64,000 nucleotides of DNA from Eledone cirrhosa. Taxonomy: Eukaryota. Shown here piece by piece: positions 1 through 62,474 of this stretch. The DNA lies in NCBI GenBank assembly GCA_964016885.1, contig OZ024766.1, positions 9,424,001 through 9,488,000 of the forward strand, read 5' to 3'. A program made the position numbers and the translations under genes. Under the pieces are notes generated by a model. That model saw only the letters and a list, made by a program, of their open reading frames with translations, was not told the DNA's origin and searched no databases. The stretch's first letter is position 1; every line of letters begins with the position of its first letter.

Positions 1-3000
1 CTACCACATTACAGCGTGGACTGGGAGCTTCTTACCATGTTACCTACACTACCACATTACAGTGTGGACTGGGAGCTTCTTACCATGTTACCTACACTAC
101 CACATTACAGCGTGGACTGGGAGCTTCTTACCGTGTTACCTCCACTACCACATTACAGCGTGGACTGGGAGCTTCTTACCATGTTACCTACACTACCACA
201 TTACAGCGTGGACTGGGAGCTTCTTACCATGTTACCTACACTACCACATTACAGTGTGGACTGGGAGCTTCTTACCATGTTACCTACACTACCACATTAC
301 AGTGTGGACTGGGAGCTTCTTACCATGTTACCTACACTACCACATTACAGTGTGGACTAGGAGCTTCTTACCGTGTTACCTACACTACCACATTACAGTG
401 TGGACTGGGAGCTTCTTACCGTGTTACCTACACTACCACATTACAGTGTGGACTGGGAGCTTCTTACCGTGTTACCTACACTACCACATTACAGTGTGGA
501 CTGGGAGCTTCTTACCGTGTTACCTACACTACCACATTACAGTGTGGACTGGGAGCTTCTTACCGTGTTACCTACACTACCACATTACAGCGTGGACTGG
601 GAGCTTCTTACCATGTTACCTACACTACCACATTACAGTGTGGACTGGGAGCTTCTTACCGTGTTACCTACACTACCACATTACAGTGTGGACTGGGAGC
701 TTCTTACCATGTTACCTACACTACCACATTACAGTGTGGACTGGGAGCTTCTTACTGTGTTACCTACACTACCACATTACAGTGTGGACTGGGAGCTTCT
801 TACCGTGTTACCTACACTACCACATTACAGTGTGGACTGGGGGCTTCTTACCATGTTACCTACACTACCACATTACAGTGTGGACTGGGAGCTTCTTACC
901 GTGTTACCTACACTACCACATTACAGTGTGGACTGGGAGCTTTTTACCGTGTTACCTACACTACCACATTACAGTGTGGACTGGGAGCTTCTTACCGTGT
1001 TACCTACACTACCACATTACAGTGTGGACTGGGGGCTTCTTACCATGTTACCTACACTACCACATTACAGTGTGGACTGGGAGCTTCTTACCGTGTTACC
1101 TACACTACCACATTACAGTGTGGACTGGGGGCTTCTTACCATGTTACCTACACTACCACATTACAGTGTGGACTGGGAGCTTCTTACCGTGTTACCTACA
1201 CTACCACATTACAGTGTGGACTGGGGGCTTCTTACCATGTTACCTACACTACCACATTACAGTGTGGACTGGGAGCTTCTTACCGTGTTACCTACACTAC
1301 CACATTACAGTGTGGACTGGCTTCTTACCATGTTACCTACACTACCACATTACAGTGTGGACTGGGAGCTTCTTACCGTGTTACCTACACTACCACATTA
1401 CAGTGTGGACTGGGAGCTACTTACCGTGTTACCTACACTACCACATTACAGTGTGGACTGGGAGCTTCTTACCGTGTTACCTACACTACCACATTACAGT
1501 GTGGACTGGGAGCTTCTTACCATGTTACCTACACTACCACATTACAGTGTGGACTGGGAGCTTTTTACCGTGTTACCTACACTACCACATTACAGTGTGG
1601 ACTGGGAGCTTCTTACCATGTTACCTACACTACCACATTACAGTGTGGACTGGGAGCTTCTTACCGTGTTACCTACACTACCACATTACAGTGTGGACTG
1701 GGAGCTACTTACCGTGTTACCTACACTACCACATTACAGTGTGGACTGGGAGCTTCTTACCATGTTACCTACACTACCACATTACAGTGTGGACTGGGAG
1801 CTTCTTACCGTGTTACCTACACTACCACATTACAGTGTGGACTGGGAGCTTCTTACCATGTTACCTACACTACCACATTACAGTGTGGACTGGGAGCTAC
1901 TTACCGTGTTACCTACACTACCACATTACAGTGTGGACTGGGAGCTTCTTACCATGTTACCTACACTACCACATTACAGTGTGGACTGGGAGCTTCTTAC
2001 CGTGTTACCTACACTACCACATTACAGTGTGGACTGGGAGCTTCTTACCGTGTTACCTACACTACCACATTACAGTGTGGACTGGGAGCTTCTTACCGTG
2101 TTACCTACACTACCACATTACAGTGTGGACTGGGAGCTTCTTACCGTGTTACCTACACTACCACATTACAGTGTGGACTGGGAGCTTCTTACCATGTTAC
2201 CTACACTACCACATTACAGTGTGGACTGGGAGCTTCTTACCGTGTTACCTCCACTACCACATTACAGTGTGGACTGGGAGCTACTTACCATGTTACCTAC
2301 ACTACCACATTACAGTGTGGACTGGGAGCTTCTTACCGTGTTACCTACACTACCACATTACAGTGTGGACTGGGAGCTTCTTACCGTGTTACCTACACTA
2401 CCACATTACAGTGTGGACTGGGAGCTTCTTACCGTGTTACCTACACTACCACATTACAGTGTGGACTGGGAGCTTCTTACCGTGTTACCTACACTACCAC
2501 ATTACAGTGTGGACTGGGAGCTTCTTACCATGTTACCTCCACTACCACATTACAGTGTGGACTGGGAGCTTCTTACCATGTTACCTCCACTACCACATTA
2601 CAGTGTGGACTAGGAGCTTCTTACTGTGTTACCTACACTACCACATTACAGCGTGGACTGGGAGCTTCTTACCGTGTTACCTACACTACCACATTACAGT
2701 GTGGACTGGGGGCTTCTTACCGTGTTACCTACACTACCACATTACAGTGTGGACTGGGAGCTTCTTACCGTGTTACCTACACTACCACATTACAGTGTGG
2801 ACTGGGAGCTTCTTACCGTGTTACCTACACTACCACATTACAGTGTGGACTGGGAGCTTCTTACCATGTTACCTCCACTACCACATTACAGTGTGGACTA
2901 GGAGCTTCTTACTGTGTTACCTACACTACCACATTACAGCGTGGACTGGGAGCTTCTTACCGTGTTACCTACACTACCACATTACAGTGTGGACTGGGAG

Positions 3001-3765
3001 CTTCTTACTGTGTTACCTACACTACCACATTACAGTGTGGACTGGGAGCTTCTTACCGTGTTACCTACACTACCACATTACAGTGTGGACTGGGAGCTTT
3101 TTACCGTGTTACCTACACTACCACTTTACAGTGTGGACTGGGAGCTTCTTACCATGTTACCTACACTACCACATTACAGTGTGGACTAGGAGCTTCTTAC
3201 TGTGTTACCTACACTACCACATTACAGTGTGGACTGGGAGCTTCTTACCATGTTACCTACACTACCACATTACAGTGTGGACTGGGAGCTTCTTACTGTG
3301 TTACCTACACTACCACATTACAGTGTGGACTGGGAGCTTCTTACCGTGTTACCTACACTACCACATTACAGTGTGGACTGGGAGCTTCTTACCATGTTAC
3401 CTACACTACCACATTACAGTGTGGACTGGGAGCTTCTTACTGTGTTACCTACACTACCACATTACAGTGTGGACTGGGAGCTTCTTACCGTGTTACCTAC
3501 ACTACCACATTACAGTGTGGACTGGGAGCTTCTTACCATGTTACCTACACTACCACATTACAGTGTGGACTGGGAGCTTCTTACTGTGTTACCTACACTA
3601 CCACATTACAGTGTGGACTGGGAGCTTCTTACCCTGTTACCTACACTACCACATTACAGTGTGGACTGGGAGCTTCTTACCATGTTACCTACACTACCAC
3701 ATTACAGTGTGGACTGGGAGCTTCTTACCGTGTTACCTCCACTACCACATTACAGCGTGGACTGT
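1..3765. repeat. 48-bp minisatellite (~78 copies, open at window start) derived from a SINE-internal segment
   Basis: Unit CTACCACATTACAGTGTGGACTGGGAGCTTCTTACCRTGTTACCTACA. It matches the single-copy segment at ~4605-4665 of the neighbouring SINE and continues at 3765-4025 into sequence homologous to 5003-5253. Confidence 0.97.
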
Positions 3766-4180
3766 GTGTATTTTTTGTCGTGACACATACACGACCTCAT
3801 TTATTTTGGACTGGATGTTGTGGTACCAACATAACTTTATAGAGAAAGGGGTGGTGTTGGTGAGAGGATGGAGTAGGGGTAGTGGGTTGGCGTGTATGTT
3901 TGGTTTGGAGGGCTCTACTGACTGTAGGTTTCGCTTCGTACATAGGCAAGGCGAGTCTTCTGTATTACTGCGTGGCGCCAAAGATCTCGGTCCAGTGACA
4001 TTGTTTTAGAGAGGTGCAAGTGTGTATTATTCTGGGTCTATTATTGTTGTTTTATTTTCTCTTCAGGTACGTGGTCCATCTAGTTTGAGTAGGTAGGTAC
4101 CCAGCAACCTTTCCAGGTGCTGTGTTGCCAGAAGCCGTCACCCCGAGCGCCCACAACCCTCAGCCCAGTGCCTGAACTCC

Positions 4181-4440: not shown

Positions 4441-5253
4441 ATCATCATCGTCATCATCATCATCATCGTTTAACGTCCATCTTCCACGCTTGCATGGGTT
4501 TGGACGGGAATTTTCCCACTTGAGGCAAGATTGGTTGTCTTGCTCGCATAGGACTGTCTGGCGGGTTTTCTACGGCTGGATGCCCTTCCTAACACCAACC
4601 ACGTTTACAGTGTGGACTGGGAGGTTTTTACCGTGTTGCCTACACGGCCACATTACAGCGTGGACTGTCTGGCGGGTTTTCTACAGCTGGATGCCCTTCC
4701 TAACACCAACCATGTTTACAGTGTGGGACTGGGAGGTTTTTACCGTGTTACCTACACGGCCACATTACAGCGTGGACTGTCTGGCGGGTTTTCTACAGCT
4801 GGATGCCCTTCCTAACACCAACCACGTTTACAGTGTGGGCCTGGGAGGTTTTTACCGTGTTACCTACACGGCCACATTACAGCGTGGACTGTCTGGCGGG
4901 TTTTCTACAGTTGGATGCCCTTCCTAACACCAACCACGTTTACAGTGTGGGACTGGGAGGTTTTTACCATGTTACCTACACGGCCACATTACAGCGTGGA
5001 CTGTGTGTTTTTGTCGTGACACCTACACAACCTCATTTATTTAGGACTGGATGTTGTGGTACCAACATAACTTTACATCGAAAGGGGGTGGTGTGGATGG
5101 GGTGGGGGTAGTGGGACGGGGGTGTATTTTGGGTAAGAGGTGCCTACTGACTAGGTTTCGCTTTGCACTTAGGCAAGGCGGGTCTTCTGTATTACTGCAT
5201 AGCGCCAAAGATCTCAGTCCAGTGACATTGTCTTGGAGAGGTGTAAATGTGTG
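4441..5253 (-). mobile_element. SINE-like element with RTE-type 3' tail and internal ~112-bp tandem repeats
   Basis: On the minus strand the tail reads ...GGACGTTAAAC(GAT)n. It shares GGTGTTAGGAAGGGCATCCAG with the other SINEs; related copies at ~19805-20050, 37760-37950, 54610-54760 and 62250-62400. Confidence 0.75.
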
Positions 5254-10100: not shown

Positions 10101-10267
10101 CATTCTAACCACATGTCCATAGTATCAGAGCTGTGATCTCTTAATTAGGAGATTCTTTCCTGAGACATTCTAACCACATGTCCATAGTATCAGAGCTGTG
10201 ATCTCTCAATTCAGAGATTCTTTCCTGAGACATTCTAACCACATGTCCATAGTATCAGAGCTGTGAT
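7087..10267. repeat. 60-bp minisatellite (~53 copies)
   Basis: Unit GATTCTTTCCTGAGACATTCTAACCACATGTCCATAGTATCAGAGCTGTGATCTCTCAATTCAGA; the array ends ~40 bp before the GABPB exon 2 acceptor. Confidence 0.97.
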
Positions 10268-10306
10268 GATGATATATTACATATTTTTATTTTTCTCTCT
10301 CCACAG

Positions 10307-10504
10307 CTTGGAATGTCACCATTACACTTTGCTGCTCGGAATGGTCACTTTCAAACAGCTGATGTCCTGCTGAGGGCCGGAATTAGCAGAGATGCTCGAA
10401 CCAAAGTCGACCGAACACCCCTACACGTTGCTTCCCAGGAGGGTCATGTAACTATCGTTAACCTCTTACTGGCCAATTCTGCAGATATAGAAGCTAAAGA
10501 CATG
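10307..10504 (+). CDS. GABPB1: GABPB coding exon 2 (ankyrin repeats; [14 protein letters not shown]...[13 protein letters not shown]...ADIEAKDM)
   Basis: Acceptor ctctctccacag|, donor ATG|GTAGCT, 198 nt, phase 0/0; carries the GABPB signature [17 protein letters not shown]. Confidence 0.96.
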
Positions 10505-10711
10505 GTAGCTACTCTTTTATTATCGTTTAATGTCCATTTTTCCACACTAGCATGGGCTAGACGATTTGTCCTGCTGTGAGTCAAGCCCGATCAGATGCGA
10601 TGACCGTGTCTTGCTCATATGGAACTGTTTCTGGCTTGGTTTTTACAGCTGGATGTCCTTCCTAACCCCAACCACTCTATAGTGGGCACTGGGTGCTTTT
10701 TGTCATGGCAC

Positions 10712-12305
10712 CAGGGGTGTTTGGAACATAACTTAACAAAGGTTCTTATATGAAATTATGAGGGATGGTTTTTAGATAAATATAAACACTTTAAAACCAG
10801 CTTTATGTCATAGAACCAAGGGTGTTTGGAACATAACTTAACAAAGGTTCTTATATAAAATTATGAGGGATGGTTTTTAGATAAATATAAACACTTTAAA
10901 ACCAGCTTTATGTCATAGAACCAAGGGTGTTTGGAACATAACTTAACAAAGGTTCTTATATAAAATTATGTGGGACAGTTTTTAGATAAATATAAATAGT
11001 TTTATATCATAGAAACAGGGGAGTTTGGAACATAACTTAACAAAGGTTCTTATATAAAATTATGAGGGATGGTTTTTAGATAAATATTAACACTTTAAAA
11101 CCAGTTTTATATCATAGAACCAGGGGTGTTTGGAACATAGCTTAACAAAGGTTCTTATATAAAATTATGAGGGATGGTTTTTAGATAAATATTAACACTT
11201 TAAAACCAGTTTTATATCATAGAACCAAGGGTGTTTGGAACATAACTTAACAAAGGTTCTTATATAAAATTATGTGGGACAGTTTTTAGATAAATATAAA
11301 TAGTTTTATATCATAGAAACAGGGGAGTTTGGAACGTAACTTAACAAAGGTTCTTATATGAAATTATGAGGGATGGTTTTTAGATAAATATTAACACTTT
11401 AAAACCAGTTTTATATCATAGAACCAAGGGTGTTTGGAACATAACTTAACAAAGGTTATATAAAATTATGTGGGACAGTTTTTAGATAAATATAAATAGT
11501 TTTATATCATAGAAACAGGGGAGTTTGGAACGTAACTTAACAAAGGTTCTTATATGAAATTATGAGGGATGGTTTTTAGATAAATATTAACACTTTAAAA
11601 CCAGTTTTATATCATAGAACCAAGGGTGTTTGGAACATAACTTAACAAAGGTTATATAAAATTATGTGGGACAGTTTTTAGATAAATATAAATAGTTTTA
11701 TATCATAGAAACAGGGGAGTTTGGAACGTAACTTAACAAAGGTTCTTATATGAAATTATGAGGGATGGTTTTTAGATAAATATTAACACTTTAAAACCAG
11801 TTTTATATCATAGAACCAGGGGTGTTTGGAACATAACTTAACAGAGGTTCTTATATAAAATTATGAGGGATGGTTTTTAGATAAATATTAACACTTTAAA
11901 ACCAGTTTTATATCATAGAACCAGGGGTGTTTGGAACATAACTTAACAAAGGTTCTTATATAAAATTATGAGGGGTGGTTTTTAGATAAATATTAACACT
12001 TTAAAACCAGCTTTATATCATAGAACCAAGGCTGTTTGGAACATAACTTAACAAAGGTTCGCATATAAAATTATGAGGGATGGTTTTTAGATAAATATTA
12101 ACACTTTAAAACCAGCTTTATATCATAGAACCAAGGCTGTTTGAAACATAACTTAACAAAGGTTCTTTCATAAAATTATGTGGGACGGTTTTTAGATAAA
12201 TATAAATAGTTTTATATCATAGAAACAGGGGAGTTTGGAACGTAACTTAACAAAGGTTCTTTCATAAAATTATGAGGGATGGTTTTTAGATAAATATAAA
12301 TATTT
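10712..12305. repeat. ~95-105-bp tandem repeat amplified from a MITE interior
   Basis: Unit ...GTTTGGAACATAACTTAACAAAGGTTCTTATATAAAATTATGAGGGATGGTTTTTAGATAAAT...; reverse-complement copies at 40270-40665 and 48010-48565. Confidence 0.9.
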
Positions 12306-12348
12306 TCATGACCCAATTTCTAATGTAAGTAAAAATTCTACTGTCCAG

Positions 12349-12447
12349 TTAAAGATGACCCCACTACACTGGGCTACAGAAAAGGGACATTTAACCATCG
12401 TGGAGCTGTTGATAAAGAACGGTGCTGATGTCAATGTAGACGATAAG
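12349..12447 (+). CDS. GABPB1: GABPB coding exon 3 ([33 protein letters not shown])
   Basis: Acceptor ctgtccag|, donor AAG|GTAAGA, 99 nt = one ankyrin repeat. Confidence 0.96.
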
Positions 12448-12591
12448 GTAAGAATTTTGGTTTTGGTTATTGCTTTTCTATATTTTGTGCTTTTATGTTT
12501 TGTATATATGTATTTATATACATTACTAGGAAAGAAAACACACATATCAAGCAATGCCTGTGGTTAAAGCTTTCTTAAACCTTTAGCATTC

Positions 12592-21504: not shown

Positions 21505-22828
21505 TCTCAGTACGTGATAAGATCTACAGGCACGGACGCCTCCGGCAGGGATCCTGCCAAGATGGGAGCAGGGCATTGAAACCATCTAGAACACCTCACC
21601 AAGATGGAACGCATGCTCTTCCAGTTCCTTTCGAAGAAGCAGGCTCCGCTGGTGAGGAGATCCGTCTGCTGTCAGCACCCTTCCAACGGAGGGCTGGGAA
21701 TGCCATGGCTGATGATGCGCAAACATGCGCTGAGGCTACGGCATCTTCAGGTATTCCTCACTGACCCCCAACCGGTGTGGGCACCGTTTGTGAGACAGGC
21801 CTTCCCGCAACTTGTCTCGCTGACGGAGCTGCAGTCTTGGGTCAAGCGGAGGCCGAAAAAGATGGGCGCCTGGCACGTTGAATGCGCTCAGGCGCTCACA
21901 GTCCTCTGTCAAGCGAGCACGGTAATCAGTGGAGACTCCACTTCGACATTCTATAGAGATATTGTACGTTACAAGTGCGATGACATGCTTGGAAAGACTC
22001 TGGGCGTCGAAGATGACGAGCTCACCAGTCTGTTTGGCAGGACTTTCCGCCCGGGACCTATGGACAACTTCCAAAGGTCCCTGGCCTGGCACTGCTATGA
22101 GGAGCTCAACCAGTTCGTGGCAAGATCTACAGGCACGGACGCCCCTGCAGGGATCCTTCCAAGAGGATGTGTCCAAGATGCGAGCAGGACATTGAAACAC
22201 TTGTTTTTGCAATTGTACACTGCCCGGGCGTAACCGACCTGTGGAACTATGCAGAACAACTGCTGTCGCGTATGGGACAAATCCAGTTGACTGCCGAGTC
22301 CATAGTAAGGATCAAACCGCCACCTTCATTTAAAAACGAAAGAGAGGTGGTTTTCCTCTATACACTGGCTATGGTGAAAGAGGTTATATGGTGGACGAGG
22401 TTGAGAGGACTGAGGACAGATGCCTTTTTGTGCTCCGGACAACAACTCATTCCCTTCTTTAGGTACCACTTTAGAAGGAGAATCAGAGTGGAGAGAGAGG
22501 CACTGCACCCCAGTAAATTTACTGAAAGGTGGGTGAATGTGGCAAAAATGGCCCGAGTGATTGGGCCTTCTCTGTATATAAACCTGTAGGTTGAAGAAGA
22601 GAGCAAAAGGAAGAAAGGAGCACTTGCACAACACGCTCCTGGAGTTGAGGGTTGTTCTATCTACGGGGTATTAAACAACCCATTTGTGGCGCCTCCCCCC
22701 TATTGGGGATTTCGATTGTTATAATTGTTTGTTTTATATTTTTTTTACACGACTGTATGTAAAATCCCCGGCATGTCTTTGTTTTGTCCCCTTTTCTTGT
22801 GCGCCCTTGTGGCTAATAAAGAAATATA
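21505..22828 (+). mobile_element. Tx1/L1-like LINE 3' fragment (copy 2), frameshifted
   Basis: GGLGMP motif and zinc-knuckle-like CPRC...E...HC, followed by the same 3' UTR and AATAAA end as copy 1. Confidence 0.78.
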
Positions 22829-35531: not shown

Positions 35532-36130
35532 GTTGGTGCTACTGGTAACATGCATCCCAGTACAACCTGTCCCATGGTCGGGTCGTTGGCGACTAAACTG
35601 GCAACCCCACCAAGGTTTCTTGGTGAGGAGGGTGACTTTGGACATCCTGCAGGACTAAAAACAAAACCTGTCAAAGGGCAAAGGAGCTCTTAAGAGTCAA
35701 TGGCCATCCAAAATCACCGGGAGAGATGACCCCTTAGCCTTTGTCAAGGCAGAATTCTAGGAGAAGGAAAACTCTGATATAACACCTGCAACCCTGATGG
35801 TATCCAATGATGTTGACTTGTTCTTCTTTTTGGTAAATATCATCTTGGTTAAGAGAGTGGGACTGACTTTGTGCAGTGCCTTTGCTCACTATAAAAGCTT
35901 CACGGCACAGGCATTGCTTTATATCTGGAGATCTCTCTGCACTTGCCGTCACATGGTACCATGGGCCCAGCACTATGTGTCAATAATTGTCACAAGTGTA
36001 GTGTTTGTACCAGAGTTTTCATGTCGCTGGCTGGACTAAAATGTCACACTCGTTCAGTGCATCGGTAGGGGTTCTCCTACATGGATATAAAGTAGTGGCC
36101 GTACTCGAAAACGAGTTGGCAGCCACCATA
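35532..36130 (+). mobile_element. Dispersed repeat, probable LINE (RTE) 5' region; near-identical copy at 46127-46645
   Basis: Direct sequence identity between the two copies; the second copy abuts RTE ORF sequence at 46900-47430. Confidence 0.65.
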
Positions 36131-36680: not shown

Positions 36681-36807
36681 AGTTTTAATATAGATGAGAT
36701 TCTACAGGACTAGAACTGTTTCATTCTTGAGAAATCATCAGGAATCCTGATGATTTCTCAAGAATGAAACAGTTCTAGTCCTGTAGAATCTCATCTATAT
36801 TAAAACT
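36681..36807. ncRNA. Perfect 63-bp-arm palindrome made of two back-to-back hammerhead cores
   Basis: GATTC-CTGATGA-TTTCTcaAGAAT-GAA-ACAG ttctagtc CTGT-A^GAATC on the minus strand; mirror image on the plus strand; centre at 36744. Confidence 0.72.
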
Positions 36808-37148
36808 TTTATACTCTGCTATGTATTGAGTACCTTACTTACTGTGGTTACCTCCGATTCAACCCGGAATAACTTACCTATATATATATATATATATATA
36901 TGTAGGTAGGAGGTGAGTTTTATTGTAGCACAATAAAGTAATGCAAATATCGGATAAGTAGCACTCAACAGTTTATAGGACTGGAGTATAAATAATATAA
37001 AATCAAAAGATGGTTAAAGGAGTTCCATGTATTTTATTATGCGCATTTCAAAAACAAATGTCATCATGCAATAATATTTGTTGCAAATATATGTTGATTT
37101 AAAACTGCACTATCCACAAGTGTTTTTTAGCCTTCATATCATGTTCTG

Positions 37149-37215
37149 TTTTATCTGATGAAAACACAAATATTATTGCATGATGATGTTTGTTTTTGAA
37201 ATGCGCATAATAAAA
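37149..37215 (+). ncRNA. Type-I hammerhead ribozyme
   Basis: TTTTAT-CTGATGA-AAAC(long stem II)GTTTTT-GAA-ATGCGCAT-A^ATAAAA; palindromic stem III. Confidence 0.72.
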
Positions 37216-37635
37216 TACATGGAACTCCTTTAACCATCTTTTGATCTTATATATATATATATATATATATATATAGGAGGTGAGTTTTATTGTAGCACAA
37301 TAAAGCAATGCAAATATCGGATAAGTAGCACTCAACAGTTTATAGGACTGGAGTATAAATAATATAAAATCAAAAGATGGTTAAAAGAGTTCCATGTATT
37401 TTATTATGCGCATTTCAAAAACAAATATCATCTCAGTATTAAAGGCTCTCTCTCTATCACTCATTTCTCTTCCTCTCTCCTTCTTATATTCCTCCCACGT
37501 CATCCTTTATTTTCTTTCTTCCTCTTCCTTCTTGTTTTCCCAATCTCATATATCCATCTTATTTTATTTTTTCATATGTTGATTTAACACTTCACTGGTC
37601 GCAAGTGTTTTTTTAAACTTCATATAATGTCTCCC

Positions 37636-38549: not shown

Positions 38550-39420
38550 TGTGAAGGCACATGGCTTAGTGGTTAGAGCATTGGGCTTGCAATCGAAAGG
38601 TTGTGAGTTCAATTCTCAGACCGGGTGATGTGTTGTTTCCTTGAGCAAGACACTTTATTTCACATTGCTCCAGTTAACTCAGCTGTAGAAATGAGATGAT
38701 AGGGACTGGGGTCCCTATCATTCCACTGTAAAGTGGACGTGGAGGTGCCACGGCAAAAAAAAAGCACCCAGCACTCACTGTAAAGTGGTCGTGGAGGTGC
38801 TCTCCCTAATATTACATCAAGGTTGACTATACGGAATGACCAGTTCTATCCAGTGGTGAACCAACAAACCTAAATATATATATGGAGGCACATGGCTTAG
38901 TGGTTAGAGCATTGGGCTTGCAATCGAAAGGTTGTGAGTTCAATTCTCAGACCGGGTGATGTGTTGTTTCCTTGAGCAAGACACTTTATTTCACATTGCT
39001 CCAGTTTACTCAGCTGTAGAAATGATATGATAGGACTGTGTGTGTGACAGCTCACACCTATACAGGTTTAGCTGGCCTCCAAGGTATATCTTGTTGGAGA
39101 TGTCTTGGGTAACTTAATGATATGGACCCCAGTCCTATCATCTCATTTCTACAGCTGAGTAAACTGGAGCAACGTGAAATAAAGTGTCTTGCTCAAGGAA
39201 ACAACACATCACCCAGTCCAAGAATTGAATTCACAACCTTTTGATTGCAAGCCCAATGCTCTAACCACTAGGCCATGCGCCTTCACTTTTACTCAGCTGT
39301 AGAAATGAGATGATAAGACTGGGGGTCCCTATCATTAAATTACCCAAGACAACCTCCAACTAGATATACCTTGGAGGAGGCCAGCTAAACCTGCGTAGGT
39401 GTGAGCTGCCACGCACAAAC
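38550..39420. mobile_element. Cluster of CORE-type SINE copies in both orientations
   Basis: Heads at 38553 (+), 38883 (+) and ~39283 (-); inverted tail segments at 39035-39135 and 39315-39420. Confidence 0.8.
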
Positions 39421-41434: not shown

Positions 41435-42165
41435 ATCATTCATTTCACGTCTGCTTTTTCCCTGCTTGCAAGGGTGGGACGGGAACCGATTCTGGCTTGA
41501 TTTCTACAGCTGGATGCCCTTCCTAACACCAACCTCATTTACAGTGAGTGCTGGGTGCTTTTTTGCCGTGGCACCTCCACGACCACTTTACAGTGGAATG
41601 ATAGGGACCCCAGTCCCTATCATTTCATTTCTACAGCTGAGTAAACTGGAGCAATGTGAAATAAAGTGTCTTGCTCAAGGAAACAACACATCACCCGGTC
41701 TGAGAATTGAACGCACAACCTTTCGATTGCAAGGCCAATGCTCTAACCACTAAGCCATATGCCTCCATGTGCAATTTATATATAATATTGTCTTTTTTAA
41801 TGTATCATGGATTACTTTACTGATTGGAGGCACATAGCTTAGTGGTTAGAGCATTGGCCTTGCAATCGAAAGGTTGTGAGTTCAATTCTCAAACCGGGTG
41901 ATGTGTTGTTTCCTTGAGCAAGACACTTTATTTCACATTGCTCCAGTTTACTCAGCTGTAGAAATGAGATGATAGGGACTGGGGTCCCTGTCATACCACT
42001 GTAAAGTGGTCGTGGAGGTGCCACGACAAAAAAGCACCCAGCACTCACTGTAAATGAGGTTGGTGTTAGGAAGGGCATCCAGCTGTAGACATCAAGCCAG
42101 GATCAGTTCCCGTCCCACCCTTGCAAGCAGGGAAAAGTGGACGTAAAATGATGATGATGATGATG
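41435..42165. mobile_element. Head-to-head inverted pair of full-length CORE-type SINEs
   Basis: Minus copy ~41435-41767 and plus copy 41826-42165, ~58-bp spacer. Confidence 0.9.
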
Positions 42166-43499: not shown

Positions 43500-43756
43500 A
43501 CCCAGTTTCTCTCCCAGTTCATCCAAGCTCTGCTTTTCTCTCACATTTACATTGCACAGCCAATGAAGTATGGTTGCTTCATTTCTCTCCAGTATATGCA
43601 TGTCTTCTGCACTCACAGCCCACGTTTCATTACCATGCAGCCTTGCACTTCACTCAAGCATCATATATATAAATAAAAACACCTAGACCCATCCAACCCT
43701 TGCTAGCAGGGAAAGCAGACGTTAAATGATGACGATGATGATGATGATATACATAC

Positions 43757-43861
43757 CTTAAATGAGACTCTGTTTCGTACACGACTTGCTAGGGCTGCAT
43801 TGATGGCCCTATCAAACTGTAACAGCACCTTAAGGGCAAGTTGTGGGGTTATTTGTCCACA
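43757..43861 (-). CDS. GTF2A2: TFIIA gamma, coding exon 2 ([35 protein letters not shown])
   Basis: Acceptor tttttacag|, donor AAG|GTATGT, 105 nt; matches human [32 protein letters not shown]. Confidence 0.97.
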
Positions 43862-44154
43862 CTGTAAAAAGAGGAAACACATATAACATTATATTCACGA
43901 TCACCATCATATTTCACACACACACACATATATATATATATAATTGTTTCTACTATTGGCACAAGGCCAGAAAATTACCCAGTGCATTACTGGTACTTTA
44001 TTTTATCGACCCCGTAAGGATGAAAGGCAAAGTCAACCTCGGCGGGATATATATATAATGCGATGAAATACCAATGATGGTTGGCAAATCACTGACGAGG
44101 GACTAATTTTATATGTAACCCATGTGCAACCACGCAGTATTCCACTTTCTTCTC

Positions 44155-45830: not shown

Positions 45831-46899
45831 GGCGTTATAAATTAACCAACGGTGTTACCATTACAAGCGGTGTTTCTAAAGGGCAGATAACGCTGGACAG
45901 GCATTTAATGAGACATTACATAATTAACTCCCCTTGAAAATGTGTATATGGGGGGAAGGGTAGTGTAGTGGGCAGTCATTATAATTTGTGTGGGTGTACG
46001 TTGGTGTATAGTAGTCCCTTCTATGTATGTGTGTGTATATATGTATGTTTGTATGGATGTGTATATGTTTGTATGTATGTATGTGTATATATGTATGTGT
46101 GTGTATATATGTATGTTTGTATGTATAGGTTTCTTGGTGAGGAGGGTGACTTTGGACATCCTGCAGGACTAAAACAAAACCTGTCAAAGGGCAAAGGAGC
46201 TCTTAAGAGTCAATGGCCATCCAAAATCACCGGGAGAGATGACCCCTTAGCCTTTGTCAAGGCAGAATTCTAGGAGAAGGAAAACTCTGATATAACACCT
46301 GCAACCCTGATGATATCCAATGATGTTGACTTGTTCTTCTTTTTGGTAAATATCATCTTGGTTAAGAGAGTGGGACTGGCTTTGTGCAGTGCCTTTGTTC
46401 ACTATAAAAGCTTCACGGCACAGGCATTGCTTTATATCTGGAGATCTCTCTGCACTTGTCGTCACATTGTACCATGGGTCCAGCACTATGTGTCAATAAT
46501 TGTCACAAGTGTAGTGTTTGTACCAGAGTTTTCATGTCGCTGGCTGGACTAAAATGTCACACTTGTTCAGCGCATCGGTAGGGGTTCTCCTACATGGATA
46601 TAAAGTAGTGGCCGTACTCGAAAACGAGTTGGCAGCCACCATGTATGTATGTATGTATCAATAAATGTATGTATGTATGTGTCAATAATTGTCACAAGTG
46701 TAGTGTTTGTACCAGAGTTCTCAAGTCACTGGCTGGACTAAAAAGTCACACTCGTTCCGCGCATCGGTAAGGGTTCTCCTACATGGATATAAAGTAGTGG
46801 CCGTACTCGAAAACGAGTTGGCAGCCACCATATATGTTTGTATGTGTAACAAAATAACAAAACACACACACACGCGCACACAACACAACAACATCAACT

Positions 46900-47430
46900 G
46901 CCACCCCCACCACCACAGCAACCTTGACAGTGAAATCTCACTTAGGATTAGGAAAGCAAGTGATGCTTTCGGAAAGCTAGAAAGGCGACTCTGGGGTCGG
47001 CGAGACATATGCAAGAGGACAAAGGTAAAGGTGTACAAGTCATGTGTGCTCTCTTGTCTTCTTTATGCCTGCGAGACCTGGGTCACATATCGACACCACA
47101 CTAAGCAATTGGACCGTTTCCATCAGATGTGTCTCAGACGGATCCATGACATTCACTGGAGGGACCACATCAGTGATGTCGAGATTTTGGAAAGCTCTAT
47201 GTGTGACAGTATAGAAGCTCTTGTGCTTAAGGAACGACTGCGTTGGAGTGGTCACCTTGCCATGATGAAGGATTCTAGAATACCAAAACAACTCTTTTAT
47301 GGGTTAAAGTAAAACGACCGCCACATAAACCAAAAAAGAGGTATAAGGATTCCTTGAAAGCCTCTTTGAAAGACGCTAACATCTCTGCTGATACATGGGA
47401 AAATATTGCTGCTGATCGTAATAAATGGTT
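46900..47430 (+). mobile_element. RTE-clade LINE ORF fragment
   Basis: LDSEISLRIRKASDAFGKLERRLW...TKVKVYKSCVLSCLLYACETW...LRWSGHLAMMKDSRIPKQLFYG. Confidence 0.9.
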
Positions 47431-49572: not shown

Positions 49573-49743
49573 ATGGCGGACGGGATGAGGGCTTCGGAGA
49601 GACAAACTCTGGGACAATTCGCCAAATCGCAGACGAAATACGGAACTGCCAGTATCCCAGTTAGATGGAACTCAAATTTTGTCAAACACAGAGTAGTGTC
49701 TACAGATTCTTTGGTTGGCATCGCCCTTAAATATGGTGTATCG
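49573..49743 (+). CDS. LYSMD2: LysM-domain protein (LYSMD1/2-like), first coding exon A: N-terminus plus first half of LysM
   Basis: ...TKYGTAS...FVKHRVVSTDSLVGIALKYGVS| resembles LYSMD1/2 RSYGS...HRV..GDTLQG.ALKYGVT|. Donor TCG|GTGAGT. The ATG sits in a YY1-like CAAAATGGCGG. Paralogue assignment (1 vs 2) is not resolvable. Confidence 0.88.
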
Positions 49744-51364
49744 GTGAGTGCAGCTTCCATCCTTGTTTTTTCCTTATCTTCTCTTACATTCATCAAAGAT
49801 ATTTGCTTTCAGTTTTACAATAAACAACAACAGCCTTTATTTATTTAAGAGAATAAATAATTGTTTCTACTTTTGGCACAAGGCCAGCAATTATCCGAGT
49901 GTATTACTGGTACTTTATTTTATCGAGCCCGTAAGGATGAAAGGCAAAGTTAACTTCGGCGGGATTTGGACTCAGAATGGCCATAAATAATAACAAATAA
50001 ATATGATGCTTTCAGCTTTTGTCACGAGGTTAGCTACTTAAAGGGGATGGAACGGGTGGGCAGGCGAGTCAGTTGATTAAATCGATCACAGTGAATTACT
50101 GGTACTTTATTTTATCAACGTACACAGAATCAAGGGGCCGTAACTCTATGCCAATTTTTTTTTGAGGGGGAGGTGAAAGTCGATTAAATCGACTTTCACC
50201 TTCCTCCAGTGAATTACTGGTACTTTTATTTTATTGACAGACGTAAGGATGAAAGGCAAAGTTAACCTTGGCGGGATTTGAACACAGAACGTAAAGAGCC
50301 GGACCTCTATGCCGATTTTTGGGGGGAGGGGAAAGTCAATTAAATCAACCTCAGTGTGTTACTGGTACTTTATTTTATCAACCACTGTAAGGATGAAAAG
50401 CAAGATTAACCTCGGCTTCATTTGAATACAGAACGTAAACGGCCGGAACTCTATGCCAATTTTGAGGGCTAGCAATTTGAAGGGATGTGGTGGGGAGTCA
50501 GTTAATAAAATCGACTCCAGTGTATTACTGGTACTTTATTTTATTGACCACCGTAAGGATGAAAGGCAAAATTAACATCGGCGGGATTTGAACAGACAAC
50601 GTAAAGGGCCATAACTTTGTGCCACGAATCAGGGTGTCCGACGCTCTACCGATCACTGCTAATTGTACCGCCTTTATCTATAATTGATAATAAATAAATA
50701 TGGTTTCTGCTTTTGTCACAAGATCACACACACATACACACATACATACGTACACACACATACACACACACATACATACACACACACATACATACAACCA
50801 CACCTACACACAACCACACATGCATACACACACACTTACATACATACACAAACATACAAACATACATACACATACACAAACATACAAACATACAAACACA
50901 CATACACAAACATACAAACAAACACGCATTCATAAAAACACATACACACAAACACATACAAACATACATACAAATACATACAAACAAACACACACACATA
51001 CACAAAAACACATACACACACACACACATACAAACACACACATACAAACAAACACACATACACAAAAACATACACACAAACATACAAATACATAGAAACA
51101 CACACACATACAAACAAACACACATTCATAAAAACACATACACACAAACACACACATACATACATATGATTGTTACTAGTTTTAGCACAAGGCCAGCAAC
51201 TACCGCAGTGTATTACTGGTACTTTATTTTATCAACCCTGTAAGGATGAAAGGCAAGGTTAACTTCAGCGGGATTTGAACTCAGAACATCATAAAGGGAT
51301 GTAACTCTATGCTGCAAAGCAGGGTGTCTGACGCTCTTCCAATATATATCATCATCATCATCAT

Positions 51365-51945
51365 CATCATTTTACGTCCGCTTTTCCCAGCATCTCTCCA
51401 CTCGTCACGGTCCTTCGTCATCTCCACCGTGAGCTTCAATGATCTGAGGTCTGTTCTCACCACCTCCGCCCATGTTTTTCGTGGTCTACCTCTACCACGT
51501 CTTCCTTCAACTGGCATTTCCTGGCACTTCTTCATCCATCGGTCATCCTCCATGCGCATCACATGTCCATACCACCTCAGTCTCCTCTCCCGTACACTAC
51601 ATTCTATCCCTCTCAGACACAGTTTCTCTCTCAACACATTTATGCTGGGTCGTTCACGCACATTTACACTGCACATCCAACGGAGCATGCTTGCCTCATT
51701 TCTCTCCAGCCGTTGCATATCCTCTGCAGTTGCTGCCCATGTCTCACTACCATGCAGCATCGCTCTCCTCACACAGGCATCATACAACCGGCCTTTCATA
51801 CGCAGGGAGAAACCCTTCTTCGTCAGCAGAAGAAGCAGCTCCCTAAACTTCTTCCAACCCGTCCTTATTCTATATACTATGGCCTCGGAACACCCTCCTC
51901 CCATGCTAATCTGATCTCCTAGGTACCGGAAGCTATCCACCACTT
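51365..51945 (-). mobile_element. RTE-clade LINE 3' ORF fragment
   Basis: VDSFRYLGDQI...KGRLYDACVRRAMLHGSETW...RRLRWYGHVMRM...GRGRPRKTW. Confidence 0.93.
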
Positions 51946-52007
51946 CTATATATATATATATTAAAATATAAGTATTAATAAAATAGATGTTCTTTTGATC
52001 AATTAAA

Positions 52008-52058
52008 TTTTATTATACATATTTCGGATGTACAACAGTACGTCCTCATCAGACAAAA
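52008..52058 (-). ncRNA. Type-I hammerhead ribozyme (TTTTAT/ATAAAA family variant)
   Basis: Minus strand TTTTGT-CTGATGA-GGAcGTAC tgtt GTACaTCC-GAA-ATATGTAT-A^ATAAAA. Confidence 0.72.
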
Positions 52059-52880: not shown

Positions 52881-53184
52881 TGTGTGTGTGTGTGTGTGTT
52901 TGTATTGGTTTATACATCTCGCTTGTAATTTTGGCAATATATACTAAAGTATGTACCAAAGTATATTTTGAGTTATCTCCCTTTTTTTTGTTTTTTTTTA
53001 AATTCATAATTACTATGATTTTATATAATTTTGTGTAGGTGTATATATGTATACATATATACACACATACATACATATATACATATATATATATATCTAT
53101 ATCTATTCTTATAATAAATATATATCATCATCATGATTATCATATAAATATATATGTATATATATATATATATATATATTTATA

Positions 53185-53488
53185 TACGTTATTCCGGGTT
53201 GAATCGGAGGTAACCACAGTAAGTAAGGTACTCAATACATAGCAGAGTATAACAGATTCCTGATGATTTCTAATGAATGAAACAGTTCTAGTCCTGTAGA
53301 ATCTCATCTATATTAAAACTGTTATACTCTGCTATGTATTGAGTACCTTACTTACTGTGGTTACCTCCGATTCAACCCGGAATAACGTACATTTTAGCAC
53401 TCCCTGTGCCCCTTATAACCCAGATTCCTGATGATTTCTAATGAATGAAACAGTTCTAGTCCTGTAGAATCTCATCTATATTAAAACT
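53185..53488 (+). ncRNA. Tandem hammerhead dimer (168-nt unit) with inverted 5' arm; retrozyme/Penelope pLTR-like
   Basis: AGATTC-CTGATGA-TTTCtaatGAAT-GAA-ACAG ttctagtc CTGT-A^GAATCT occurs twice (cores at 53260 and 53428). 53185-53255 is the reverse complement of 53319-53389. Flanked by (TA)n. Confidence 0.78.
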
Positions 53489-53764
53489 ATATATTTATAT
53501 ATATATATATATATATTTATATACATATATATTTATATACATATATATTTATATATATATATATATATATATATAATGTTACATAGTAGAGTTTGCTTCA
53601 TCCTATGCTGCAATATACGCACCTGTATAAATATAAATGAAGTATTTCCGTGGGAAAGGTACAGGAAAATATATATATATATAAATAACATTTACAAGTA
53701 TATTTACACACACTTCAAATCAACCCCCCCGCTCTCTCTCTCCGATAACACCACTTTCTCCACT

Positions 53765-57259: not shown

Positions 57260-57640
57260 CACCTCTCAAAGGCGATGACACACGACCGTGACCTCTGGCG
57301 TCACGCAGTAATACAGAGTACCCGACCTCCCATGGGTACAAGCTTAAGCATATAGACAATATGCCCCCACACCCTCCTACTGCAAGGTGGTCGTGGAAGT
57401 GCCACGGCAGAAAAGCACCCAGCCCACACTGTAAAGTGGATGTGTAGGGGCCACGAAAAAGCACCCAGCACTCACTGTAAATGATGTTGGTGTTAGGAAG
57501 GGCATCCAGATGTAGGTATCAAGCCAGAATCAGTTCCTGTATGAGCAAGGCATGGTCAGCCGACCAGACACTGCCCACAACAGGACAACCCGTCTAACCC
57601 ATGATAGCGTGGAAGAACGGACGTAAAACGGTGATGATGA

Positions 57641-59895: not shown

Positions 59896-59991
59896 ATGTC
59901 GCAGCTAAAAGACTTAGGTGGACAGTATATTCGCCACACTATTCACAACCAGGAGTCCTTAATAGGTATAGCACTAAAATACCAAGTTTCA
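59896..59991 (+). CDS. LYSMD2: LysM-domain protein, alternative exon B: a second, different first half of LysM (MSQLKDLGGQYIRHTIHNQESLIGIALKYQVS)
   Basis: H.......SL.GIALKY.VS| aligns with exon A. Consensus donor TCA|GTAAGT; acceptor AG at 59888-59889 after a ~100-nt AG-free, pyrimidine-rich tract. Confidence 0.8.
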
Positions 59992-60227
59992 GTAAGTATT
60001 GTTAACTTTTTGGGGGTACCACATTTCTAACGAAATACACCGCGGGGTAGATGAGGGAGGGTTTGGTCTGGCAGGGTCGGGGTTATGGTTTTGGGAATAA
60101 TTTTCTTCCACATATGTTGTAAATACATGCAATACTTGTCCCTCTCTTTCTCTCATACACTGATTTATGTACACACCTTACCTTCTCCCTGCTGCACACA
60201 CATACATACACATCAATGTATTTCTCA

Positions 60228-60286
<59 letters not shown>

Positions 60287-60380
60287 TAACCAAAGATTAA
60301 TATGGTTCATTGATTACTCAATGAATATAGTTTTTACAATAGATTAAAAGCACTCTACAGTGAAGTTTTCTGGAGTTATT

Positions 60381-60660
60381 AATATTATTCAGAATATTAA
60401 TAAATGAAGAAATTCACATAATCAAAATATATGTTTTATTATATATATTTCGAAGGTACTGTGCTGTTTTTTCAGTACGTCCTCGTCAGATAAAATACAT
60501 GAATTGATGTAAGACCGTTTGGGAATGTCATACATTAATTCATGTATTTTATCTGACGAGGACGTACTGAAAAAACAGCACAGTACATTCGAAATATATA
60601 TAATAAAACATATATTTTGATTATGTGAATTTCTTCATTTATTAATATTCTGAATAATAT
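60381..60660. ncRNA. Inverted repeat (~130-bp arms) holding two divergent hammerhead ribozymes (60434-60495 minus; 60547-60608 plus)
   Basis: TTTTAT-CTGACGA-GGAcGTACTG...CAGTACaTTC-GAA-ATATATAT-A^ATAAAA on each strand. Confidence 0.75.
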
Positions 60661-61074: not shown

Positions 61075-61424
61075 TGGAGGCACATGGCTTAGTGGTTAGA
61101 GCATTGGCCTTGCAATCGAAAGGTTGTGAGTTCAATTCTCAGACCGGGTGATGTGTTGTGTCCTTGAGCAAGACACTTTATTTCACATTGCTCCAGTTTA
61201 CTCAGCTGTAGAAATGAGATGATAGGGACTGGGGTCCCTATCATTCCACTGCAAAGTGGTCGTGGAGGTGCCACGGCAAAAAAGTACCCAGCACTCACTG
61301 TAAATGAGGTTGGTGTTAGGAAGGGCATCCAGTTGTAGAAATCAAGCCAAAATCAGTTCCCGTCTCACCCTTGGAAAAGTGGACGTAAAATGATGATGAA
61401 ATGATGATATATATATATATATAA

Positions 61425-61795
61425 TGTGGGTAGATTAGAGAGAAACGAAGCCTGCATGCTCCGATGGATGTGTAATAGTAATATACGCGAATGGCAAAGC
61501 ATAAATGAATTGAGAGAGAGACTGAGCATAAGAGGAATCAAATGCTGTGTGCAGGAGAGGCGGTTGCGTTGGTATGGACATGTGATGCGTATGAAGGATG
61601 ACAGCTCCATAAAAAGGTGCAGAGCACTAGAAGTCGATGGAAACCGCGGAGTGGGGAAACCCAAGAAGACCTGGGATGAGGTGATAATAGCCGACCTTAC
61701 CCATTTACACCTCTCAAAGGCGATGACACACGACCGTGACCTCTGGCGCCACGCAGTAATACAGAGTCACCGAACTCCCATGGGTACAAGCTGAA
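61425..61795 (+). mobile_element. RTE-clade LINE 3' fragment fused to a SINE-type tail (to ~62095)
   Basis: LERNEACMLRWMC...RRLRWYGHVMRMKDD...GKPKKTWDEV. Confidence 0.88.
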
Positions 61796-62474
61796 GCATA
61801 TAGACAATATGCCCCCACACCGTCCCACTGCAAGGTGGTCATGGAGGTGCCACGACAAAAAAGCACCCAGCCCACACTGTAAAGTGGACGTGTAGGCGCC
61901 ACGGAAAAAAAGCACCCAGCACTCACTGTAAATGAGGTTGGTGTTAGGAAGGGCTTCCAGCTGTAGAAATCAAGCCAAATCAGTTCCTGTATGAGCAAGG
62001 CAGGGTCAGCCGACCAGACACTGCCCACAACAGGACAACCCATCTAACCCATGCTAGCATGAAAGAACAGACGTTAAACGGTGATGAAGATGATGGGTAA
62101 ACATATTATCCCATTACAATTAGTAATTAAATGCTGTTAATCCTTGATTGTTATATATAAAGTGTATATATATATATATATATTTATACACATACACACA
62201 TATATATATATATAGTCATACATATAAATAAATAAATGTATGTGTGTGTTGGTGTTAGCAAGGGCATCCAGCCGTAGAAAACCTACCAGATAGTCCTATA
62301 CCAGCGAGACACGGTCACCCGACCAATCTTGCCTCAAGTGGGACAACTCCCGTCTAACCCATGCTAGTGTGGAAGATGGACGTTAAACGAAGATGATGAT
62401 GATATATATTTATACATATGTATAGATATGTATGAATGTGTGTGTATGAGTATATATATATATATATCTATCTA

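Follow-up and report, generated by a model that had tools for sequence, protein, structure and literature searches.

Results

The locus at 53185-53488 of the window, by which we mean the whole 64,000-nt stretch of DNA analysed, is built around a 68-nt direct repeat whose two copies (53253-53320 and 53421-53488) are 100% identical and spaced 168 nt apart. As the sequence-only reading had claimed, both copies conform to the type I hammerhead (53254-53304 and 53422-53472, both on the forward strand), with predicted cuts after 53298 and 53466. The first hammerhead is followed by the remainder of a pseudo-LTR (53305-53320, forward strand) that runs to a family end we call end A (ATTAAAAC), and the second by the same segment (53473-53488, forward strand), which there reaches (TA)n. 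Between the two repeat copies lie a tail of ~69 nt leading from end A to a second end, end B (53321-53389, forward strand), delimited by loose ends of reads and by its fold and carrying a terminal hairpin with an A/C-rich loop (53366-53381), and a 31-nt stub (53390-53420, forward strand) that read depth shows to be scarce in the family and that likely represents the first bases of the element interior. Read joins identify the last three nucleotides of the stub, ACC (53418-53420, forward strand), as a microhomology at the join responsible for the 168-nt spacing.

Upstream of the first hammerhead, and meeting it through a shared CAG, is an inverted arm (53185-53255, reverse strand) that pairs with 53319-53389 over 71 bp and turns end B outward onto (TA)n, placing hammerhead 1 inside the loop of the 71-bp hairpin. 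An inverted copy of the unit had been said to precede the hammerheads; the arm is indeed there, but it copies only the tail behind the hammerhead and not the whole unit. The perfect 71-bp hairpin (53185-53389), likely intronic, is what we take to be a candidate substrate for A-to-I editing. TRF tracts on the left (53042-53186, a TA-rich microsatellite and the target) and on the right (53488-53575, (TA)n) bear out the earlier placement of the element within (TA)n. TRF called no period of 168 at the locus, where the repeat is 1.4 units long. The GC content of the 168-nt unit is 38%, no ORF of at least 110 aa overlaps the element and no LTR was found, so that the locus is non-coding with a GC below 50%, as a retrozyme would be.

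Each hammerhead comprises a 6-bp stem I (AGAUUC/GAAUCU), the CUGAUGA box, the opposed nucleotides U10.1 and U11.1, a 3-bp stem II (UUC/GAA) capped by a UAAU loop, then GAAA, a 4-bp stem III (ACAG/CUGU) with an 8-nt loop (UUCUAGUC) and the cleavage triplet GUA; the CUGANGA, GAAA and NUH core elements and helices I-III that define type I are present in both copies. The U.U pair at 10.1-11.1 occurs in all four copies of the window, where the usual G-C closure of helix II is absent, and among the variant rows listed for the mapped runs none falls at either U.U position. This pair, flagged from the outset as atypical, is unusual indeed, yet it has a precedent in the axolotl ribozyme HHR_Amex2, described in PMC7229834 as having U.U at the base of helix II and as cleaving. 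The Rfam hammerhead models that had been suggested as a check returned no match, either at the gathering score or up to E=10. Rfam also gave miRNA-like matches at the locus, which we discarded as the hairpin and the TA tracts.

A further family member, anticipated near 36681-36880, was located at 36681-36877 and is 95-97% identical. It consists of an inverted hammerhead with end A outward (36681-36746, reverse strand), which retains five of the six stem I pairs and has a predicted cut after 36703, and of a forward hammerhead in which the 5' strand of stem I is largely missing and which continues through the tail to end B and then into (TA)n (36742-36877, forward strand). The stub of 53390-53420 is absent from 36681-36877. 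The two loci are mirror cases, the tail being inverted and end A forward at 53k, and end A being inverted and the tail forward at 36k. Within each locus both hammerheads have the same loop II variant, UAAU at 53k and UCAA at 36k, as expected if the pieces of a locus stem from one template. All four hammerhead-bearing pieces (53253, 53418, 36742-36746) begin near the 5' edge of stem I, at about -4 to +6 relative to it, and not at the cut site, and in the three pieces with an intact stem I the hammerhead always lies 16 nt before end A. An adjoining inverted copy is present at both family loci of the window, and all four element ends abut (TA)n, end A at 53488 and 36681 and end B, ~69 nt past end A, at 53185 and ~36877.

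Our own hammerhead descriptor found 11 matches in the window, compared with a mean of 0.005 (maximum 1) in 200 dinucleotide shuffles, none of which had a match with a stem I of at least 6 and a stem III of at least 4 pairs. Other hammerhead families with a palindromic helix III, of the minimal type found in Penelope-like elements (PLEs), are seen with their C3 at 37155, 37644, 55993 and 60553 on the forward strand and at 60489, 55537, 26708 and 24514 on the reverse strand, with further hammerheads of this type at 52052 and 48695 (reverse strand). Those in ~60300-60660 and ~36900-37260 have the build of the present family, an inverted piece, a forward piece and (TA)n. Pattern scans gave 0 matches in metagenome contigs and 0 in viral contigs, and the one match in a genome contig (L001) was set aside as chance, with neither a helix III nor a cleavage triplet following it.

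To gauge the family beyond the window, we mapped four (X18, X2, X1 and X5) of the 20 runs listed for the locus onto the 168-nt unit, taken as 53321-53488, at 82% likeness. X18 consists of raw reads from a RAD library and X2 of contigs, whose depth is no copy number; X18, X2 and X1 come from organism A and X5 from organism B, and the library types of X1 and X2 are not on record. The best runs hold 45-50% of the words and may not carry the exact locus, runs X6-X16 contain small shares of them, and no RNA run is among the 20. In X18, 7,209 of 12,467,656 reads mapped, with a depth of ~4,900 at the peak over the hammerhead, 3,400 over the tail and 2 over 53393-53416. Depths over hammerhead, tail and stub were 2.26 million, 1.78 million and 878 in X2, 12,487, 33,178 and 5.9 in X1, and 90,427, 38,523 and 0 in X5. 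The stub thus reaches 0.02-0.06% of the neighbouring depth in X18, X2 and X1, the raw-read ratio (~0.04%) agreeing with the contig ratio, and the terminal modules exceed it ~2,000-fold. A copy number of ~7,000 can be derived from X18 only given uniform coverage and a 2.8 Gb genome and, because RAD coverage is non-uniform, is an order of magnitude at most.

None of the pieces listed continues from the stub into the hammerhead. The two longest stub-bearing pieces listed (X1 record 5, of 415 nt with 1 difference, and X2 record 11, with 11 differences) run from tail to stub and depart at 53420, and stub-bearing contigs extend up to 355 letters beyond that point. The hammerhead is usually preceded instead by a different, T-rich stretch that joins at 53418 (463 X18 reads, median 60 letters) and whose motif has 0 matches elsewhere in the window at up to 3 mismatches. 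Since tail-stub pieces leave at 53420 and the T-rich upstream enters at 53418, the stub is likely the continuation of the tail within a longer element, and the two listed contig pieces suggest that it is likely the start of the element interior; the 463 reads with their shared upstream and the stub contigs that run on together indicate that longer forms exist. Stub and hammerhead likely joined over the shared 53418-53420, so the 168 nt would be an accident of the join and not the unit of the family. With a depth of 878 in X2 the stub is not unique, and there may be a rare 168-nt subfamily. We rejected splicing as the source of the stub-hammerhead join, which retains the CAG while the stub contigs cease matching before it, and likewise an amplified tandem unit of 150-450 bp, the size expected of a retrozyme, in view of the stub depth, the stubless 36k copy and the missing TRF period. 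As a separate observation, what usually precedes the hammerhead is a T-tract whose final CAG sits at the 5' edge of stem I, much like a 3' splice site.

Loose ends of reads and contigs locate the outer ends of the family. (TA)n loose ends lie behind 53385 in 489 X18 reads and behind 53389 in 31 X2 contigs, and in organism B the loose ends behind 53385/53389 are (AC)n. Among the joints listed, opposite-strand joints of the two mirror types recur at 53322/53425, 53322/53443, 53425/53425 and 53425/53444. Tandem hammerhead joints link 53484-53488 to 53418 with 7-11 letters between, and hence other spacings (~75-80 nt) occur. The tail hairpin (53366-53381), just before end B, resembles the stem-loop at which reverse transcription starts in an Anolis element. 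In organism B, position 53366 is a C (10,267 of 10,502 depth) and 53381 a G in the loose ends, likely a compensatory change in this hairpin.

Conservation across copies, which had been proposed as a check, was examined in the mapped runs: the core is nearly fixed while loop II varies. Per-position differences across the family amount to 5-68% (X2) and 24-71% (X18) in loop II, compared with 0.05-0.8% (X2) and 5-9% (X18) at the core and stem positions listed. Because loop II varies and the core does not, we consider it likely that selection acts on the motif as a ribozyme of the parent element. The commonest loose ends on either side give a stem I of GGCUUC/GAAGCC, two compensatory changes away, which appears to belong to the commonest subfamily; the two sides were read from different consensus lines and not from single molecules. 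Loop III holds a central CUAG palindrome in register; pairing of two copies is predicted at -12.8 kcal/mol and the hairpin at -1.4, in keeping with the dimer model of PMC4209133. Isolated hammerheads left to fold freely did not obtain the active shape and did no better than shuffles (z ~0), a result that is uninformative because the core contacts are unscored. The hammerhead would likely be active in the RNA of the parent element as a stem-III-swapped dimer.

The setting at 53k changes what such a dimer could do. Folding energies were computed with ViennaRNA, and a pseudoknotted dimer across the hairpin loop falls outside its scoring. In the predicted folds, the swapped dimer is favoured over two monomers by 8.7 kcal/mol when the inverted arm is left out; once the arm is included, the 71-bp hairpin encloses hammerhead 1 in its loop, a nested dimer would cost +101 kcal/mol, and a cut monomer paired to the arm would form a duplex of -133 kcal/mol. 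With the arm present, folding as two monomers lies 11.8 kcal/mol above the free ensemble, a cost that the arm does not raise. The 168-nt circle is predicted at -26.1 kcal/mol, against -17.7 for shuffles (z -2.5, 6 of 500 as stable), and is 57% paired, against 51%. The transcript of 53240-53490 that had been put forward for an in vitro cleavage test omits most of the inverted arm and would not mimic the real transcript.

The element had also been assigned to a sense LYSMD intron. A LysM half-exon with a GT donor does lie upstream (49573-49742, same strand) and is 96% identical to an O. bimaculoides protein, which identifies the host as an octopus. The window yielded no exon carrying the remainder of the domain, and a motif search for the second LysM half gave nothing convincing; an intronic setting is likely from the sequence. 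The forward strand carries a second LysM first-half exon at 59897-59992, with the same codon phase at its end and likewise a GT donor, and the element lies between the two, which would be either alternative first exons or tandem paralogues.

Elsewhere in the window, exons encode ankyrin repeats (10253-12564, forward strand), a weak C2H2 zinc finger (35895-36065, forward strand) and TFIIA gamma (43706-43888, reverse strand). A 48-bp tandem array occupies 1-3814, with related short copies at 4605-5037, 57379-57480 and 61811-61931. Three partial tRNA-like matches (38562-38619, 38893-38950 and 41835-41892) are probably heads of a tRNA-derived SINE. The segments 21580-22589, 46704-47312, 51281-52009 and 61408-61794, which have no Pfam match, are what we take to be 3' fragments resembling LINE ORF2 ends (Tx1-like and RTE-like).

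Discussion

Using a combination of sequence anatomy, read depth and folding, we propose, with a probability of roughly three in four, that the locus is one hammerhead-bearing PLE insertion in (TA)n, cut down to its terminal modules. It is made of three pieces with defined joins, its outer ends are common to the second locus and to other copies, and its stub is rare. It has a pseudo-LTR hammerhead near its 3' end, an optional tail, an inverted copy with partial tandems, and an AT-microsatellite target, the structure of a truncated PLE insertion. Published PLE insertions show 5' truncation, partial tandems, an adjoining inverted copy, an optional tail and a bias towards (TA)n (PMC8557442); two reverse transcription start sites flank the tail at an A/C-rich stem-loop in the Anolis element (PMC11167929); and internal microhomology deletion between pseudo-LTRs is known in PLE derivatives (PMC3846280). 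PLEs make up 6.83% of O. vulgaris (supplement of PMC13282606). The proposal of a ribozyme retroelement family that yields a 168-nt circle accordingly survives in part: the hammerheads are real, the family is mobile and non-coding and its link to PLEs is the best one, but the 168-nt unit and circle are not supported in view of the stub depth and the inverted arm. In 139 of the 163 stop-free segments of the window, RT or GIY-YIG Pfam matches numbered 0, and with no ORF linked to the family no PLE clade can be named.

From PLE biology we infer how such an insertion might arise. A PLE RT/GIY-YIG protein, encoded elsewhere, would nick AT-rich DNA such as a TA tract, and cDNA synthesis would begin at either of two fixed sites, end A and end B, which enclose the tail. 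Close to the 5' edge of the hammerhead the RT would usually halt or switch template, and microhomologies of 2-4 nt would unite the pieces, directly or inverted. At this locus, reverse transcription would have proceeded from end A through the downstream hammerhead and jumped at ACC from just upstream of it to the start of the interior, unless the interior was deleted later; the tail and the upstream hammerhead would then have been copied, and the inverted tail, joined through CAG, would have completed the insertion. We suggest that the hammerhead at the 53k locus is a passenger, and that pairing of the product with the inverted arm would make a free 168-nt circle unlikely.

The ~2,000-fold excess of the terminal modules over the stub could also mean that hammerhead and tail form a short non-autonomous element of ~135 nt with source loci of its own, SINE-like and moved in trans by a PLE protein. 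The four window pieces that begin at the 5' edge of stem I and the several subfamilies with a conserved core would suit such an element, and non-autonomous PLEs with pseudo-LTRs have been published (PMC8557442). Against it stand the longer upstream shared by the 463 X18 reads and the stub contigs that run on beyond 53420, and heavy 5' truncation is in any case normal for PLEs. We regard this alternative as unlikely.

We judge it distinctly unlikely that the locus is a retrozyme caught at birth, in which one PLE microhomology deletion has set two hammerheads 168 nt apart in an intron and the RNA between them is excised and circularised. Were it true, it would reveal a one-step route from PLE to retrozyme, and the swapped-dimer hammerhead with its U.U pair, which is conserved in thousands of copies, most of them starting at its 5' edge, would mark where the PLE template RNA or cDNA ends. 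That PLE origin is combined with a working newborn retrozyme, whose intronic hammerheads both cut and free a 168-nt RNA or circle, seems very unlikely to us. Both cores are intact and in sense to the upstream LysM exon donor, the model still allows monomers to fold inside the hairpin loop, and a pseudo-LTR origin of retrozymes has been proposed (bioRxiv 2026.07.22.740005); circle release here, if true, would be a direct test of that origin for animal retrozymes. Conversely, the product would be held by the upstream arm and the nested dimer blocked, and stem II is weak (3 bp plus the U.U). PLE hammerheads are, moreover, often weak: in bioRxiv 2026.07.22.740005 one of nine Xenopus dimers cleaved and the other eight showed no cleavage in vitro, and the Anolis PLE hammerhead required protein (PMC11167929).

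A true non-LTR retrozyme family, in which tandem 168-nt units are transcribed, cut, circularised and reinserted and this locus is a 1.4-mer, we consider highly improbable, since its claims (two intact type I hammerheads at that spacing, 38% GC, a length bordering on the 170-400 nt range, the axolotl U.U precedent (PMC7229834), a circle that folds somewhat better than shuffles and the stub depth of 878 in X2) meet a stub at 0.02-0.06% of family depth and at 0 in organism B, no stub-to-hammerhead run among the pieces listed, the departure of the two longest at 53420, a stubless 36k copy, no TRF period and a circle only 57% paired.

Two closely spaced hammerheads are insufficient for calling a retrozyme, and hammerhead-bearing PLE ends form a class that is already known and is abundant, as the 11 descriptor matches in this 64-kb window alone attest. 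What the sequence points to here is an octopus variant of the swapped-dimer U.U hammerhead, with a short helix II and a palindromic loop III. In the literature searched, whose coverage is incomplete, we found no account of this family or variant under octopus or cephalopod hammerheads or self-cleaving ribozymes; the main text of bioRxiv 2026.07.22.740005, in the parts available, names no mollusc, and two 14-nt family probes are absent from the Octopus Naiads listed in the PMC8557442 supplement, Naiads that have no canonical hammerheads there.

The 5'-truncated insertions of EN+ PLEs (PMC8557442, PMC3846280, PMC11167929) resemble the locus in having a type I hammerhead near the 3' end, two ends that bound the tail, a head-to-head inverted piece, a partial tandem, an AT-microsatellite target, microhomology joins and internal deletion. 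In contrast, and counting against the proposed reading, the tail is ~69 nt here, compared with a published 30-40 nt, and the hammerhead here has a short, U.U-closed helix II, a 4-bp helix III and an 8-nt loop. Non-LTR retrozymes of Acropora, Mytilus and axolotl (HHR_Amex2) are likewise non-coding, low in GC and PLE-related, with closely spaced, directly repeated type I hammerheads (PMC7229834; bioRxiv 2026.07.22.740005). Unlike in these, the 168-nt spacing here is not the unit of the family, there are no arrays, the inverted arm pairs with the would-be monomer, and the predicted self-pairing looks weak.

The minimal PLE hammerheads (PMC4209133), including the variant of Drosophila virilis Penelope, share with the present motif a palindrome in helix or loop III that suits a dimer. 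In D. virilis Penelope an intron ends at helix I, and here, too, a likely 3' splice site (T-tract, CAG) ends at the 5' edge of helix I. The minimal type differs in its helix II, which is short here and not of 6-8 bp, in the G10.1-C11.1 pair, which U.U replaces, and in helix III, a real 4-bp stem here and not a tiny palindromic one. With U.U at the base of helix II and a likely dependence on dimers, the hammerhead described here is HHR_Amex2-like and stands closer to the axolotl ribozyme than to the minimal PLE type.
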